Shown here: piece after piece, positions 1-5,017 of the stretch
Layout of the letters: every line of letters begins with the position of its first letter
How positions within the stretch are numbered: the stretch's first letter is position 1
Origin: a virus
Lineage: Duplodnaviria > Heunggongvirae > Uroviricota > Caudoviricetes
Length of the DNA: 5,017 nt
Direction: 5' to 3' (one strand)
IMG/VR virus record: IMGVR_UViG_2585427728_000001
Program-made: the position numbers and the translations under genes
Notes under the pieces: generated by a model
The model's input: only the letters and a program-made list of their open reading frames with translations
What the model was told of the DNA's origin: nothing
Databases searched by the model: none

Positions 1-351
1 ACTGTATGTCACGGGCATACAGGAAAAGACATCATGCTCGGTAAAACGTATACCAAAGCAGAATGCAAAGCCCTCCTGAATAAAGACCTTGCCACGGTCG
101 CCAGACAAATTAACCCGTACATCAAAGTCGATATACCGGAAACAATGCGCGGCGCTCTTTACTCATTCGTTTACAACGTGGGTGCTGGCAATTTCAGAAC
201 ATCGACGCTTCTTCGCAAAATAAACCAGGGCGATATCAAAGGCGCATGTGATCAGCTACGTCGCTGGACATATGCTGGCGGTAAGCAATGGAAAGGGCTG
301 ATGACTCGCCGTGAGATTGAGCGTGAAGTCTGTTTGTGGGGGCAGCAATGA
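1..351 (+). CDS. R: Phage endolysin, phage-21/RrrD-type lysozyme (T4-lysozyme-like, GH24); 5' end lies upstream of the window
   Basis: Frame 1 is open from nt 1 and reads [48 protein letters not shown]...[13 protein letters not shown], ending at TGA 349-351. From memory this is collinear with the C-terminal ~115 aa of phage 21 R / E. coli RrrD lysozymes. The N-terminal SAR/catalytic region is outside the window, so only the C-terminal part is seen. Confidence 0.9.
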
Positions 352-815
352 GCAGAGTAACTGCGATTATCTCCGCTCTGGTTATCTGCATCATCGTCTG
401 CCTGTCATGGGCTGTTAATCATTACCGTGATAACGCCATTACCTACAAAGCCCAGCGCGACAAAAATGTCAGAGAACTGAAGCTGGCGAACGCGGCAATT
501 ACTGACATGCAGATGCGTCAGCGTGATGTTGCTGCGCTCGATGCAAAATACACGAAGGAGTTAGCTGATGCGAAAGCTGAAAATGATGCTCTTCTGCGGA
601 AGCTTGATAATGGTGGCAGGGTGCTCGTCAAAGGAAAATGCCCTGTGCCATCCTCTGCCGAAACCTCCAGCGCCTCCGGCATGGGCAATGATGCCACCGT
701 CGAACTCTCTCCAGTTGCTGGACGAAACGTTCTCGATATCCGGGACGGAATTATCCGCGACCAAACAGCACTGAGAACGCTTCAGGAATACATTAGGACG
801 CAATGCCTTCGATGA
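348..815 (+). CDS. Rz: Rz i-spanin (inner-membrane spanin subunit)
   Basis: ATG at 348 overlaps the endolysin stop (ATGA). The product [23 protein letters not shown]... has an N-terminal transmembrane segment followed by charged, coiled-coil-like sequence ([50 protein letters not shown]) and a C-terminal cysteine. It sits directly after the endolysin and carries an embedded +1-frame lipoprotein gene, the defining Rz/Rz1 architecture. The ORF track starts at GTG 336; ATG 348 is preferred. Confidence 0.9.
568..774 (+). CDS. Rz1: Rz1 o-spanin (outer-membrane lipoprotein spanin subunit), embedded in the +1 frame of Rz
   Basis: 68-aa ORF lying entirely inside Rz in a different frame. The N-terminus [21 protein letters not shown] is a signal peptide with a lipobox (VAGC), followed by a proline-rich stretch [11 protein letters not shown] typical of Rz1. 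AGGAG lies about 7 nt upstream of the ATG at 568. The N-terminus resembles lambda Rz1 (MLKLKMML...) from memory. Confidence 0.85.
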
Positions 816-990
816 TAGCGATAATTTTACTCATCATCCTTCACATCTGGCTCTGTAGACAGGGTGGTGATCACTTCTGGAGTAAATCCAGATTAAACAT
901 CTCATTGCTGATGCTTGATATTGAGCATCTGGCGCGCAGTAAGGGGCTGCGTTGAGATAAGAGCCAGTTCATTACAAATACCAGGATTTA

Positions 991-1015
991 GCCTCGCATT
1001 CGCGGGGCTTTTTAT
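991..1015 (+). terminator. Putative rho-independent terminator downstream of the lysis cassette
   Basis: GCCTCGC-ATTC-GCGGGGC forms a 7-bp GC-rich stem (one G-U pair) with a 4-nt loop, immediately followed by TTTTTAT. It lies about 175 nt after the Rz stop and about 140 nt before the Rha start. Confidence 0.45.
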
Positions 1016-1157
1016 ATCTGAATTTCACAGCGCATCTCACGCGCATATTAACGAGAGCCTTTCAGTAAGCGAGCCTGAGAAATGCCGTTATAGGTGGCGA
1101 CCTCTCTCGGGCGGCTTTTCTGTGAGACAGGCTCACTTTCTAAAAGGTAAAGACGCT

Positions 1158-1682
1158 ATGAATAATCATTCAGTTATTCCAGCCTTCGACTTCCGAGAAA
1201 TGGTGCAAGCCAAAAACGGAGAGGTCGTTACCACATCCAGAAAAATTGCCAAGTACTTCGGCAAGCGACACGGTGATGTTCTCAGGAAAATCGAGCAGGT
1301 TAAGGCTGATTGCTCGCGTGAGTTTAGCCAACGCAATTTTGCGTCGGCTGATTATATCGATGAGCAGGGCAAGGTTCGCCCGATGTACAGCCTGACGAAA
1401 GATGGCTGGATCATGGTTGTGATGGGGTTCACCGGGAAAGCTGCTGCGGCAATCAAGGAGAGCTATATCGCAGCATTCAACTGGATGGCAGAACAACTGA
1501 GCCGCCGCATGGCAATTGGCGAAGAAATGCAGCACCGCTACGCCATCAAAGAAACACGCTCAAAGCTGAAAGGTACGATCGGCAGTCGGTTAATGAACGA
1601 ACGGAAGAAAGAGAAGCGTGTCCTGGCTGTCGAGCATGAATACATCTTGCAGGTGACACAGCCTGAACTGCTGATTAATTGA
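1158..1682 (+). CDS. rha: Rha-family phage regulatory protein (Phage_pRha domain)
   Basis: 174-aa product starting MNNHSVIPAFDFREMVQAKNGEVVTTSRKIAKYFGKRHGDVLRKIEQ...MYSLTKDGWIMVVMGFTGKAAAAIKESYIAAFNWM. The TTSRKIAKYFGKRHGDVLRKI and LTKDGW..MGFTGK..A..K..YI.AF motifs are characteristic of the Rha family. ATG 1158 follows AAAGGTAAAG. The longer ORF in the track (from 915) is a TTG-initiated extension that runs through the terminator hairpin and is rejected. Confidence 0.85.
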   Translation: MNNHSVIPAFDFREMVQAKNGEVVTTSRKIAKYFGKRHGDVLRKIEQVKADCSREFSQRNFASADYIDEQGKVRPMYSLTKDGWIMVVMGFTGKAAAAIKESYIAAFNWMAEQLSRRMAIGEEMQHRYAIKETRSKLKGTIGSRLMNERKKEKRVLAVEHEYILQVTQPELLIN

Positions 1683-1984
1683 AGATGTCATTACAAAGCC
1701 TATCTACGGGGGGCTTGATAATGGCTTATACCCTGCACGGGATAACTTAACTGATATCCCTTTTAACGGATAAAGGTATTCAAGCCTGACACATCATGCG
1801 CTGTATCGTCGCCGTATTCCCGCATTAACCATGACCGTAGCCTGACGGGGAATTCCTTCTGCGTGAGTGTGCGGGAATAATCAAAAACGATGCACACCGG
1901 GTTATTAACGCGTCAACTGAACGCGGGGTTGCTCTTCATGTCAGCCAGTCCGGTGCAGGGGTAGAAGAAACCGGACGTTATGGT

Positions 1985-2395
1985 TTAGTGTGGAAACATT
2001 TGTGATGTGCTCTGTATGTTTTCAGTAAAGAGTAATGAATTATCAAAGGTATAGTAATATCTTTTTTGTTCGTGGATATTTGTAACCCACCGAAAAACTC
2101 CTGCTTTAGCAAGGTTTCTTCTGTATTCCTGAAATGTGATCTCTCTGGATTTCAGCTTATTAGAGGTCGTTTCTATAAGATGCCTATCCTTTGAAAATTT
2201 GACAGACACAATGTTTTTTAGGCCCTTTAATAACACTGTATTATCATTTTTTAATACAATATGAACATTCTCTGTGGCTAAATAGTAAATGTAATGTGAG
2301 ACATTGTGACGTTTTAGCTCAGAATAAAACCATTGATAGTTTAAATCGTTTCGAACTTTATCAAATATTTGTTTAAAAATGACTACCTGATCCAT
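1985..2395 (-). CDS. DUF1398-family prophage protein (YdfO/YbcV-like), AT-rich cargo gene
   Basis: Minus-strand ORF. The preferred start is ATG at 2395 ([27 protein letters not shown]...), preceded by GGAAGG about 8 nt upstream, giving 136 aa. The track start at 2410 has no Shine-Dalgarno sequence. GC content is about 32% against about 58% in the terminase region. Assignment to the YdfO/YbcV (DUF1398) family is from memory of E. coli cryptic-prophage proteins and is unverified. Confidence 0.7.
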
Positions 2396-2454
2396 AGATA
2401 AACCTTCCATGTGATATGAGGGGGGGCGTAGTCTGCACGATTATCTAAATTGCT

Positions 2455-2688
2455 TCAATCTGGTCTGATCTGTTTTCTGAGCAATTCAGTAATGTCACTC
2501 TTTTCTTTGTTTGCTTCAGGAGAAACTCTTTTTTCTGAGCACAGTCTCCGGCGGCAGGCTTCAATGACCCAGGCTGAGAAATTCCCGGACCCTTTTTGAT
2601 CAAGAGCGATGTTAATTTGTTCAATCATTTGGTTAGGAAAGCGGATGTTGCGGGTTGTTGTTCTGCGGGTTCTGTTCTTCGTTGACAT
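2455..2688 (-). CDS. DUF3950-family small protein (YnfO/YlcI-like), predicted ribbon-helix-helix-like DNA-binding protein
   Basis: 77-aa minus-strand ORF: MSTKNRTRRTTTRNIRFPNQMIEQINIALDQKGSGNFSAWVIEACRRRL.... A basic N-terminal tail, a short beta-strand (NIRFP), helix (NQMIEQINIALDQ), G-x-S/N turn (KGSGN) and second helix (FSAWVIEACRRRL) fit the ribbon-helix-helix pattern. It resembles E. coli prophage YlcI/YnfO proteins from memory. Confidence 0.8.
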   Translation of the reverse strand: MSTKNRTRRTTTRNIRFPNQMIEQINIALDQKGSGNFSAWVIEACRRRLCSEKRVSPEANKEKSDITELLRKQIRPD

Positions 2689-2857
2689 GAGGTTGTCCCG
2701 TATTCAGTGTCGCTGATTTGTATTGTCTGAAGTTGTTTTTACGTTAAGTTGATGCAGATCAATTAATATGATACCTGCGTCATAATTGATTATTTGACGT
2801 GGTTTGATGGCGTAGATGCACGTTGTGACATGCAGATGATAATTATTATCATTTTGC
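2689..2857 (-). promoter_or_regulatory. AT-rich region expected to hold the promoter of the minus-strand DUF3950/DUF1398 genes; no -35/-10 assigned
   Basis: This is the only non-coding sequence upstream (minus-strand sense) of the 2688 start codon. It is AT-rich (for example TTGATGCAGATCAATTAATATGATACC, GATAATTATTATCATTTT). The same segment corresponds to the lambda right-end sequence just before cosQ. No confident promoter hexamers could be assigned by eye. Confidence 0.3.
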
Positions 2858-3070
2858 GGGTCCTTTCCGGCGATCCGACAGGTTACGGGGCGGCGACCTC
2901 GCGGGTTTTCGCTATTTATGAAAATTTTCCGGTTTAAGGCGTTTCCGTTCTTCTTCGTCGTAACTTAATGTTTTTATTTAAAATACCCTCTGAAAAGAAA
3001 GGAAGCGACAGGTGCTGAAAGCGAGCTTTTTGGCCTCTGTCGTTTCCTTTCTCTGTTTTTGTCCGTGGAA
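2858..3070. other. cos: Lambda-type cohesive end site cos (cosQ 2858-2864, cosN 2888-2899, cosB about 2900-3070)
   Basis: The sequence ...GGGTCCTTTCCGGCGATCCGACAGGTTACG|GGGCGGCGACCTCGCGGGTTTTCGCTATTTATGAAAATTTTCCGGTTTAAGGCG... matches the joined right and left ends of phage lambda as recalled. GGGTCCT is cosQ, GGGCGGCGACCT is the 12-nt cohesive end, and the following ~170 bp up to the Nu1 start correspond to cosB (Nu1 R-sites and IHF site), whose sub-sites were not mapped individually. Confidence 0.9.
2888..2899 (+). other. cosN: cosN 12-nt cohesive-end sequence GGGCGGCGACCT (terminase nicking site)
   Basis: Exact match to the lambda left cohesive end, preceded by the lambda right-end sequence GATCCGACAGGTTACG. 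Confidence 0.9.
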
Positions 3071-3076
3071 TGAACA

Positions 3077-3622
3077 ATGGAAGTCAACAAAAAGCAGCTG
3101 GCTGACATTTTCGGTGCGAGTATCCGTACCATTCAGAACTGGCAGGAACAGGGAATGCCCGTTCTGCGAGGCGGTGGCAAGGGTAATGAGGTGCTTTATG
3201 ACTCTGCCGCCGTCATAAAATGGTATGCCGAAAGGGATGCTGAAATTGAGAACGAAAAGCTGCGCCGGGAAGTTGAAGAACTGCGGCAGGCCAGCGAGAC
3301 AGATCTCCAGCCAGGGACTATTGAGTACGAACGCCATCGACTTACGCGTGCGCAGGCCGACGCACAGGAGCTGAAAAATGCCAGAGACTCCGCTGAAGTG
3401 GTGGAAACCGCATTCTGTACTTTCGTGCTGTCGCGGATCGCAGGTGAAATTGCCAGTATTCTCGACGGGATCCCCCTGTCGGTGCAGCGGCGTTTTCCGG
3501 AACTGGAAAACCGACATGTTGATTTCCTGAAACGGGATATCATCAAAGCCATGAACAAAGCAGCCGCGCTGGATGAACTGATACCGGGGTTGCTGAGTGA
3601 ATATATCGAACAGTCAGGTTAA
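3077..3622 (+). CDS. nu1: Terminase small subunit Nu1 (lambda gpNu1-like, winged-HTH cosB-binding protein)
   Basis: 181-aa product MEVNKKQLADIFGASIRTIQNWQEQGMPVLRGGGKGNEVLYDSAAVIKWYAERDAEIENEKLRREVEELRQ.... This is the same length as lambda gpNu1 and essentially collinear with it as recalled. It has an N-terminal helix-turn-helix, sits immediately downstream of cosB, and its 3' end overlaps the start of gene A by 26 nt as in lambda. Confidence 0.97.
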   Translation: MEVNKKQLADIFGASIRTIQNWQEQGMPVLRGGGKGNEVLYDSAAVIKWYAERDAEIENEKLRREVEELRQASETDLQPGTIEYERHRLTRAQADAQELKNARDSAEVVETAFCTFVLSRIAGEIASILDGIPLSVQRRFPELENRHVDFLKRDIIKAMNKAAALDELIPGLLSEYIEQSG

Positions 3623-4835
3623 CAGGCTGCGGCATTTTGTCCGCGCCGGGCTTCGCTCACTGTTCAGGCCGGAGCCACAGACCGCCGTTGAATGGGCGGA
3701 TGCCAATTACTATCTCCCAAAAGAATCCGCATACCAGGAAGGGCGCTGGGAAACACTGCCCTTTCAGCGGGCCATCATGAATGCGATGGGCAGCGACTAC
3801 ATCCGTGAGGTGAATGTGGTGAAGTCTGCCCGTGTCGGTTATTCCAAAATGCTGCTGGGTGTTTATGCCTACTTTATAGAGCATAAGCAGCGCAACACCC
3901 TTATCTGGTTGCCGACGGATGGTGATGCCGAGAACTTTATGAAAACCCACGTTGAGCCGACCATCCGCGATATTCCGTCGCTGCTGGCGCTGGCTCCGTG
4001 GTATGGCAAAAAGCACCGGGATAACACGCTCACCATGAAGCGTTTTTCCAATGGTCGTGGCTTCTGGTGCCTGGGCGGTAAAGCGGCAAAAAACTACCGT
4101 GAAAAGTCGGTGGATGTGGCGGGTTATGATGAACTTGCTGCCTTTGATGAGGATATTGAACAGGAAGGCTCTCCGACGTTCCTTGGCGACAAACGTATTG
4201 AAGGCTCGGTCTGGCCAAAGTCCATCCGTGGCTCCACGCCCAAAGTGAGAGGCACCTGCCAGATTGAGCGTGCAGCCAGTGAATCCCCGCATTTTATGCG
4301 TTTTCATGTTGCCTGCCCGCACTGCGGGGAGGAGCAGTATCTTAAATTTGGCGACAAAGAGGCGCCGTTTGGCCTCAAATGGACGCCGGATGACCCCTCC
4401 AGCGTGTTTTATCTCTGCGAGCATAATGCCTGCGTCATCCGCCAGCAGGAGCTGGACTTTACTGATGCCCGTTATATCTGCGAAAAGACCGGGATCTGGA
4501 CCCGTGATGGCATTCTCTGGTTTTCGTCATCCGGTGAAGAGATTGAGCCGCCGGACAGTGTGACCTTTCACATCTGGACGGCGTACAGCCCGTTCACCAC
4601 CTGGGTGCAGATTGTCAAAGACTGGATGAAGACGAAAGGGGATACGGGAAAACGTAAAACCTTCGTGAACACCACGCTCGGTGAGACATGGGAAGCGAAA
4701 ATTGGCGAACGTCCGGATGCTGAGGGTAAGCGACTCGTCAGAACCGTATTGATATTTACTGAGAGCTCAGATCAACTTTCCAGGGCAACAGATCGCGTAC
4801 CCGGTTTGCCGGCCAGTCCTGGATATGTTCAATGA
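3597..4835 (+). CDS. A: Terminase large subunit gpA, C-terminally truncated by an IS66-family insertion (probable pseudogene; A-derived part 3597-4724, last 36 codons read into the IS)
   Basis: MNISNSQVNRLRHFVRAGLRSLFRPEPQTAVEWADANYYLPKESAYQEGRWETLPFQRAIMNAMGSDYIREVNVVKSARVGYSKMLLG... follows lambda gpA (641 aa) as recalled, including the Walker-A-like VKSARVGYSK, up to ...GETWEAKIGERPDAE (codon 376). Lambda then continues VMAERKEHYSAP..., whereas here the frame reads GKRLVRTVLIFTESSDQLSRATDRVPGLPASPGYVQ and stops. The nucleotide sequence from 4726 onward is unrelated to lambda. Confidence 0.92.
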   Translation: MNISNSQVNRLRHFVRAGLRSLFRPEPQTAVEWADANYYLPKESAYQEGRWETLPFQRAIMNAMGSDYIREVNVVKSARVGYSKMLLGVYAYFIEHKQRNTLIWLPTDGDAENFMKTHVEPTIRDIPSLLALAPWYGKKHRDNTLTMKRFSNGRGFWCLGGKAAKNYREKSVDVAGYDELAAFDEDIEQEGSPTFLGDKRIEGSVWPKSIRGSTPKVRGTCQIERAASESPHFMRFHVACPHCGEEQYLKFGDKEAPFGLKWTPDDPSSVFYLCEHNACVIRQQELDFTDARYICEKTGIWTRDGILWFSSSGEEIEPPDSVTFHIWTAYSPFTTWVQIVKDWMKTKGDTGKRKTFVNTTLGETWEAKIGERPDAEGKRLVRTVLIFTESSDQLSRATDRVPGLPASPGYVQ

Positions 4836-5017
4836 CGTAACGCAGCCACTTTTCTGGCTCCACATTGTTCAGACGGCATGTGCCGATCAGCGAGTACAAC
4901 ACCGCCGCATGTTCACCACCGCTGTCGGAACCCGCGAACATCCAGTTTTTCCGGCCTACGGCCACTCCCCGTAAGGCGTTCTCTGCGATGTTGTTGTCGA
5001 TTTCCACCCAGCCATTA
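4726..5017 (-). mobile_element. IS66-family insertion sequence, one terminus plus the 3' end of its transposase gene; the element continues beyond the window
   Basis: Homology to lambda A ends at 4724-4725. The new sequence starts GTAAGCGACTCGTCAGAACCG..., and GTAAGCG is recalled as the typical start of IS66-family terminal inverted repeats. The minus-strand ORF 4756-5017 encodes an IS66 TnpC-like C-terminus. The boundary is uncertain by about 2 nt, and the other IS end and any 8-bp target duplication are outside the window. Confidence 0.85.
4756..5017 (-). CDS. IS66-family transposase (TnpC-like), C-terminal fragment; the 5' part of the gene lies beyond the window end
   Basis: The minus-strand frame is open to the window edge (...NGWVEIDNNIAENALRGVAVGRKNWMFAGSDSGGEHAAVLYSLIGTCRLNNVEPEKWLRYVIEHIQDWPANRVRDLLPWKVDLSSQ, stop at 4756-4758). 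The NxAEnALRxxAVGRKNWxFAGSxxGGExAAxxYSLI motif is typical of IS66-family transposase C-termini. The M at 5007 in the track is an artefactual GTG start. Confidence 0.9.
   Translation of the reverse strand, partial: NGWVEIDNNIAENALRGVAVGRKNWMFAGSDSGGEHAAVLYSLIGTCRLNNVEPEKWLRYVIEHIQDWPANRVRDLLPWKVDLSSQ

Follow-up and report, generated by a model that had tools for sequence, protein, structure and literature searches.

How did the terminase large-subunit gene A of a lambdoid prophage come to run, in mid-frame, into an insertion sequence (IS) of the IS66 family, and what stands beyond the join? The question is raised by a 5,017-nucleotide (nt) stretch of DNA, here called the window, of which the last 292 bp belong to the IS. 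All 5,017 nt are 100% identical in two complete Escherichia coli chromosomes, those of ET881 (frog faeces, China) and SW071610 (wastewater, Galapagos), and it is from these two that we read the rest of the IS and the deletions around it. We conclude, with a probability of roughly 0.88, that the locus is a scar of ordinary prophage decay, in which ISCro1 inserted into gpA and was followed by deletions that included most of the IS.

By its gene content, the window is the late region of a lambdoid prophage. It begins in a lysozyme gene, of which it contains the 3′ part (positions 1–351), and continues with Rz (336–815, with Rz1 embedded at 568–774), a gene for a Rha-family regulator (1158–1682) and, on the minus strand, DUF1398 (1985–2410) and YlcI-like (2455–2688) genes. 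The Rz1 lipoprotein open reading frame (ORF; 568–774, plus strand) inside Rz matches the Pfam Rz1 model (E = 7.6e-19) and contains the lipobox VAGC; RefSeq leaves it unannotated in both ET881 and SW071610, naming just a 'lysis protein' there. Farther along the plus strand lies cosN, GGGCGGCGACCT (2888–2899), the 12-nt lambda cohesive-end sequence and an exact match to lambda nt 1–12. A cosB-like region follows and reaches nu1 (to 3076), the ~190 nt after cosN being near-identical to the left end of lambda. The terminase small-subunit gene nu1, a Nu1/nohD homologue (3077–3622, plus strand, 181 aa), is intact: the Pfam model Phage_Nu1 is covered from position 1 to 164 of 164 (E = 3.9e-101), and the gene carries the nohD annotation in both ET881 and SW071610.

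The 5′ part of gene A occupies 1,129 nt on the plus strand (3597–4725; codons 1–376 and the first base of codon 377), within an A-frame ORF of 412 aa that begins with GTG and extends to 4835. Residues 1–376 align without gaps to lambda gpA, with 373 of 376 identical (the differences being T151S, D185E and T256A), and they equal the product of the intact HS30-1 gene at 376 of 376 positions. From residue 377 onward the ORF reads GKRLVRTVLIFTESSDQLSRATDRVPGLPASPGYVQ and stops, which is unrelated to the VMAERKEHY... of lambda. Where the intact HS30-1 gene reads on TGATGGCGGAG, the window has GTAAGCGACTC; because the window and this 100%-identical intact gene diverge at that point, the breakpoint falls exactly at 4725|4726. 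The uninterrupted terminase genes of hundreds of E. coli genomes also match up to window position 4725 and no further (megablast against 5,426 complete E. coli genomes).

The domain content of the fragment reflects the position of the break. The Pfam domain GpA_ATPase is complete (aa 47–285; model positions 3–237 of 247; E = 4.6e-51), and GpA_nuclease is present over model positions 2–59 of 294, equivalent to some 55 residues at the start of the nuclease domain. Thus, among the hallmarks of a lambda-type gpA, the ATPase domain is retained, with nu1 and cosN upstream, whereas the endonuclease domain and the prohead-binding C terminus are missing, lambda residues 377–641 (265 aa) being gone. The gpA remnant is, on this domain content, a pseudogene of the lambda-type terminase large-subunit family, and RefSeq (PGAP) labels it 'terminase gpA endonuclease subunit, incomplete, missing C-terminus'. 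The read-through tail of the ORF (4725–4835, plus strand; 36 codons and a stop) is antisense IS sequence; its 36 residues have no similarity to lambda gpA 377–412 and include the unique peptide LVRTVLIFTESSDQLSR. A PDB sequence search returned no solved relative of the gpA fragment.

The sequence that takes over at 4726 is, judging by its terminal repeat, a genuine IS terminus, beyond mere transposase-like sequence. Positions 4726–4747, GTAAGCGACTCGTCAGAACCGT, constitute the tnpC-proximal terminal inverted repeat of ISCro1, identical to the ends of the five full copies that we inspected (L002, L004, L005, L009 and L010) and matching the opposite ISCro1 end at 16 of 22 positions. The 5′-GTAA(G/C)CG start of IS66 terminal repeats is found at this one end, and the second repeat is absent from the locus. 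Each of the five full copies measures 2,699 bp, starts on the tnpC side with GTAAGCGACTCGTCAGAACCG and ends on the tnpA side with ...AATGAGCCGGTTAC, and all five, which lie at other loci, have an 8-bp direct repeat on both flanks. Window positions 4726–5017 (minus strand) are 100% identical to the end of these full-length copies, whose RefSeq name is 'IS66-like element ISCro1 family transposase'. The 3′ end of tnpC, the DDE transposase gene, lies on the minus strand at 4756–5017 (the last 86 codons and the stop) and runs off the window; it matches DDE_Tnp_IS66 over model positions 250–283 of 284 (E = 4e-11) as well as DDE_Tnp_IS66_C (E = 4e-17; both Pfam), so that the IS66 transposase domain is represented by a fragment only. 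Chance is excluded by the match statistics for both the gpA and the IS66 matches. The octamer TGCTGAGG at 4718–4725 is where the 8-bp target duplication is expected, and one copy of it survives. ISCro1 was first named in Citrobacter rodentium ICC168, in which it has 24 copies (PMC3072379).

These results bear out much of what the sequence-only reading of the window had claimed. An IS66-family end does adjoin gpA after codon 376, with the ISCro1 terminal repeat starting at 4726. The alignment of 3597–4835 to lambda gpA stops at that codon and is not full length, and the surviving ORF is the ATPase region joined to a 36-aa, IS-derived tail. The loss that it had put at 265 aa, including the nuclease region and the C terminus, is likewise found, and the match of 4726–5017 to the IS66 family, with the transposase C terminus on the opposite strand and leaving the window, holds both in Pfam and in the ISCro1 copies.

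Beyond the edge of the window the picture changes. The reading had supposed a whole IS66 element; in ET881 and SW071610 there is instead a stump with no other IS end. In ET881 it comprises 818 bp (L001 12327–13144), the window showing the first 292, and its match would end at window position 5543. It is identical at 818 of 818 positions to the ISCro1 of strain 120899 (L002 6504–7321), and it shares with ISCro1 the terminal repeat GTAAGCGACTCG... and the TnpC C terminus, but it amounts to 30% of the element, with one inverted repeat and half of tnpC. Of the 523 codons of tnpC, 262 are left in ET881, covering DDE model positions 78–283 of 284. At both loci tnpA and tnpB are gone, tnpC has lost its N-terminal half and the opposite inverted repeat is missing, so that in place of the three genes (tnpA–tnpB–tnpC, ~2.5–2.7 kb) of an IS66 element there are 818 bp with the 3′ half of tnpC. 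From this gene content, the IS piece is a non-functional remnant of an IS66-family member, labelled by RefSeq (PGAP) 'IS66 family transposase, incomplete, missing N-terminus'; it is immobile because tnpA, tnpB and the second inverted repeat are gone and tnpC is halved.

The far flank of the stump is not the 3′ part of A, whose resumption there the note had named as a point to check. A BLAST comparison of ET881 with HS30-1 and ISCro1 revealed the order gpA (to L001 12326), IS (12327–13144), a gap of 23 bp and the tail-fibre gene (from 13168). The 23 bp, TCCCCATTAAAGGGGCATCCGTC (L001 13145–13167, equivalent to window 5544–5566), are an exact copy of gpA nt 1460–1482 (codons 487–494), and we therefore dropped the idea that they are filler or a remnant of another IS. 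This sliver, all that resumes of A in ET881 and SW071610, has 2 bp of microhomology on each side, shared with the IS (GA) and with the tail-fibre gene (TA). After it come, in both genomes, the terminal 127 bp of the tail-fibre gene and an intact tail-fibre-assembly gene. A second copy of TGCTGAGG, which the earlier reading had proposed to look for as a duplication of about 4718–4725, cannot be found because the far side of the IS has been deleted.

The exact gpA|IS junction is confined to ET881 and SW071610 among 5,426 complete E. coli genomes (618-nt junction query), and the loci of these two differ at 2 of 21,618 positions. A complete IS at this junction occurs in 0 of the 5,426 genomes. A synthetic query for the right junction (IS end, TGCTGAGG and gpA nt 1130–1199) had no exact place in them, its matches being insertions at other sites only, and exact 32-mer scans for the left junction gave no match in metagenome contigs or GTDB genomes. 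Strain Z1322HEC0009 has an 84%-identical match over the junction, for which we considered an old event common to both; the IS there inserted independently, ~20 nt upstream and with its own duplication, GGCCGTGG.

The extent of the deletions became clear from HS30-1, in which a complete lambdoid prophage lies at the same place, between ybhC and ybhB–bioA, a site that we take from K-12 to be the lambda attachment site. Its early and regulatory genes comprise int, xis, exo/bet/gam, a cI-like repressor gene, cro, cII, O, P, nin genes and Q, and its late genes comprise lysis genes, nu1, the gene for a 641-aa gpA, all head and tail genes, a tail-fibre gene and tfa. HS30-1 is 100% identical over window 1–4725, and its identity to ET881 in the 8.2 kb that the two share is 99.95%. 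Missing from ET881 are HS30-1 record positions 2949226–2970475 (21,250 bp), containing the rest of gpA and all the head and tail genes, and the 818-bp stump and the 23-bp sliver stand in their place. A second deletion, of 13,911 bp, spans the 5′ part of int up to the nin region; it took xis and the recombination, immunity and replication genes and joins int to nin at L001 4134–4142 with a short overlap. What is left in ET881 is ~10.4 kb from an int fragment to tfa (L001 3496–13878), a cryptic lambdoid prophage between ybhC and ybhB–bioA in which int is without its 5′ part and xis, cI, cro, O, P and the head and tail genes are missing. The remnant retains a gene for an OmpC/NmpC-like porin (L001 5568–6650). 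Between tfa and ybhB (L001 13952–15283) there is a gene for a sensor diguanylate cyclase, which has the same position in HS30-1 and is presumably absent from this position in K-12. The porin and cyclase genes may be cargo that has outlived the phage functions.

Reading back from this anatomy, we infer an insertion step, an order of events and a mechanism, either illegitimate recombination or template switching. The starting point would have been an HS30-1-like lambdoid prophage at ybhC/ybhB of an E. coli lineage, in which the 2,699-bp ISCro1 (tnpA–tnpB–tnpC) would have transposed into A between nt 1129 and 1130 (codons 376/377), antisense to A. The far-side sliver implies that gpA once stood on both sides of the IS, and hence a simple insertion followed by deletion. 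The sliver and its 2-bp microhomologies suggest that what came next was either two successive short-homology deletions or one complex event, a template switch with two junctions. The IS would thereby have lost 1,881 bp (tnpA, tnpB, the 5′ half of tnpC and the other inverted repeat), and gpA would have lost nt 1130 to ~1457, a second stretch of loss beginning at nt ~1485 and stopping 127 bp short of where the tail-fibre gene ends. Left over from such a course would be cos, the intact nu1, the 412-aa gpA remnant and an immobile, one-ended IS stump. The order given is the probable one, no whole-IS progenitor being present in complete E. coli genomes, metagenome contigs or GTDB representatives.

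Other histories would produce parts of this picture. In one of them, a whole IS66-family element would interrupt gene A, the prophage would be intact in all other respects, and the rest of A would follow outside the window together with the TGCTGAGG duplication. The window, which ends 292 bp into the IS, is by itself compatible with this, and other strains have precisely such an arrangement at four further positions in gpA. We nevertheless regard it as very improbable: the only genomes with the junction, both 100% identical over the 5,017 nt, show the stump and the deletions, the predicted right junction is absent from the 5,426 genomes, and the metagenome and GTDB scans gave no left junction. 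Slightly less credible again is that an ISCro1 elsewhere in the prophage attacked gpA at nt 1129/1130 and that intramolecular transposition deleted the DNA in between. IS elements can cause adjacent deletions, and the large deletion begins at this IS. Such an event, however, leaves the IS whole, whereas the IS here is truncated internally; the deletion junctions lie inside the IS with 2-bp microhomology, not at an IS end; and gpA nt 1460–1482 stands beyond the stump, where it should be had gpA once lain to both sides of the IS.

We give even less credence to the idea that cos, nu1 and gpA(1–376) have been kept as something useful, for example a nuclease-less gpA that together with Nu1 poisons the terminase of a superinfecting lambda-type phage. 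Nu1, cos and the complete ATPase domain are indeed intact, and in lambda the N terminus of gpA binds Nu1. But with two near-identical genomes only, there is no evidence of selection; the gpA stub of K-12 DLP12 is no more than 309 bp long, so an ATPase-only form is not something that cryptic remnants conserve; deletion has taken the promoter and early region that feed Q; and the 36-aa tail is accidental antisense IS sequence. The least probable account, to which we attach almost no weight, is a chimeric assembly join at a repeated IS. IS copies are classic points of mis-assembly and ET881 contains further IS66-type copies (the junction query finds 5 places there, against 1 for gpA alone), yet both junctions agree base for base in two independent complete assemblies from different continents, and the stump terminates in unique sequence instead of at an IS boundary. 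Insertion of ISCro1 followed by deletion thus remains our preferred reading.

ISCro1 has entered lambda-type gpA more than once. Among complete genomes, strains 120899, 98232, 2013C-3181 and Z1322HEC0009 have four other independent ISCro1-type insertions in this gene, at gpA nt 771–778, 975–982, ~1100–1108 and 1299–1306, compared with 1129 here. They differ from the present locus in having the whole 2,699-bp IS with its own 8-bp duplication, beyond which gpA and the head genes resume. The five insertions, including that in the window, fall within ~530 nt in unrelated E. coli strains, with the IS genes antisense to gpA in every case. The five target octamers, GTTTGGCC, CATCTGGA, GGCCGTGG, TGCTGAGG and CGATGAAC, have no obvious consensus; TGCTGAGG is that of window 4718–4725, and the other four sites are L002 6496–6503, L004 8134–8141, L009 2364–2371 and L010 2364–2371. 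As our first queries were able to find the antisense orientation alone, two mirror-image control searches were added, and these found no ISCro1 in the opposite orientation in the same stretch of gpA. The 5:0 orientation count is suggestive and not significant (two-sided binomial p = 0.0625). An orientation-specific preference of ISCro1 for the middle of lambda-type gpA is, in our estimation, improbable, and it is still less likely that the leftover Nu1 and ATPase-only gpA act as a dominant-negative terminase. Separately, strain TB354 has a complete ISCro1 in rha of a 99.1%-identical prophage (L005 4669–7367, at about window 1667–1674), with the duplication GCCTGAAC; this copy, found by an orientation-biased query, is likewise antisense to the late operon.

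A structural counterpart is found in DLP12 of K-12 (nohD, the aaaD pseudogene and tfaD), which has the same late-region set (essD, rrrD, Rz, ybcV/DUF1398, ylcI and nohD). There too, the Nu1 homologue is intact, gpA is reduced to a 5′ stub that runs into the tail-fibre-assembly end, and all the head and tail genes have been lost. By contrast, the DLP12 stub (aaaD) is 309 bp, meets the tail-fibre-assembly end without an IS and occupies another place in the chromosome, whereas the stub here is 1,129 bp, its join is marked by an IS66 fragment and the 23-bp sliver, and its site is ybhC/ybhB. Prophages of E. coli decay as a rule through IS hits and large deletions, and prophage Sp4 of O157 Sakai, which is largely intact except for an IS in nu1, is packaged in trans by the terminase of Sp14, with a near-identical cos (PMC2669165). 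Sp4 resembles the present prophage in that a packaging gene of a lambdoid prophage was inactivated by an IS; it differs in that the remnant studied here is without replication and excision genes, and in that ET881 and SW071610 are without a second lambda-type gpA. Literature searches on IS66 together with terminase returned nothing specific.

The consequences for the prophage can be stated with varying firmness. In lambda, the C terminus of gpA binds the prohead. The 412-aa product, if made, would consist of the N terminus and the ATPase domain, with ~80% of the nuclease domain and the C terminus gone, and from this domain content the truncated gpA cannot cut cos or dock on proheads. Nothing is packageable, because gpA is truncated and there are no head, tail, replication or excision genes. 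With pR and the early region upstream of Q lost to deletion, the late genes are probably transcribed only weakly. Since neither ET881 nor SW071610 has a second lambda-type gpA, cos has no resident enzyme; as far as its sequence indicates, it is an orphan that only a superinfecting phage could cut. The expectation of the sequence-only reading that the prophage is defective in packaging therefore stands, but as one defect of many in a ~10-kb remnant that is also without the 5′ part of int, xis and the immunity, replication, head and tail genes.

Both pieces at the junction were already annotated as pseudogenes, and the pattern is that of known prophage decay; the importance of the finding is slight outside annotation, for which it means that a junction at the edge of a window is unsafe to read as a complete insertion. 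To our knowledge, IS66 target choice is poorly understood, and the gpA insertions, if a preference were confirmed on a full census, would inform it; were the preference true, IS66 elements would recurrently disarm lambdoid prophages at the packaging step. Collectively, our findings provide a step-by-step record of a prophage at the lambda site decaying to a ~10-kb remnant, in the course of which the IS itself would have been destroyed by microhomology deletions.
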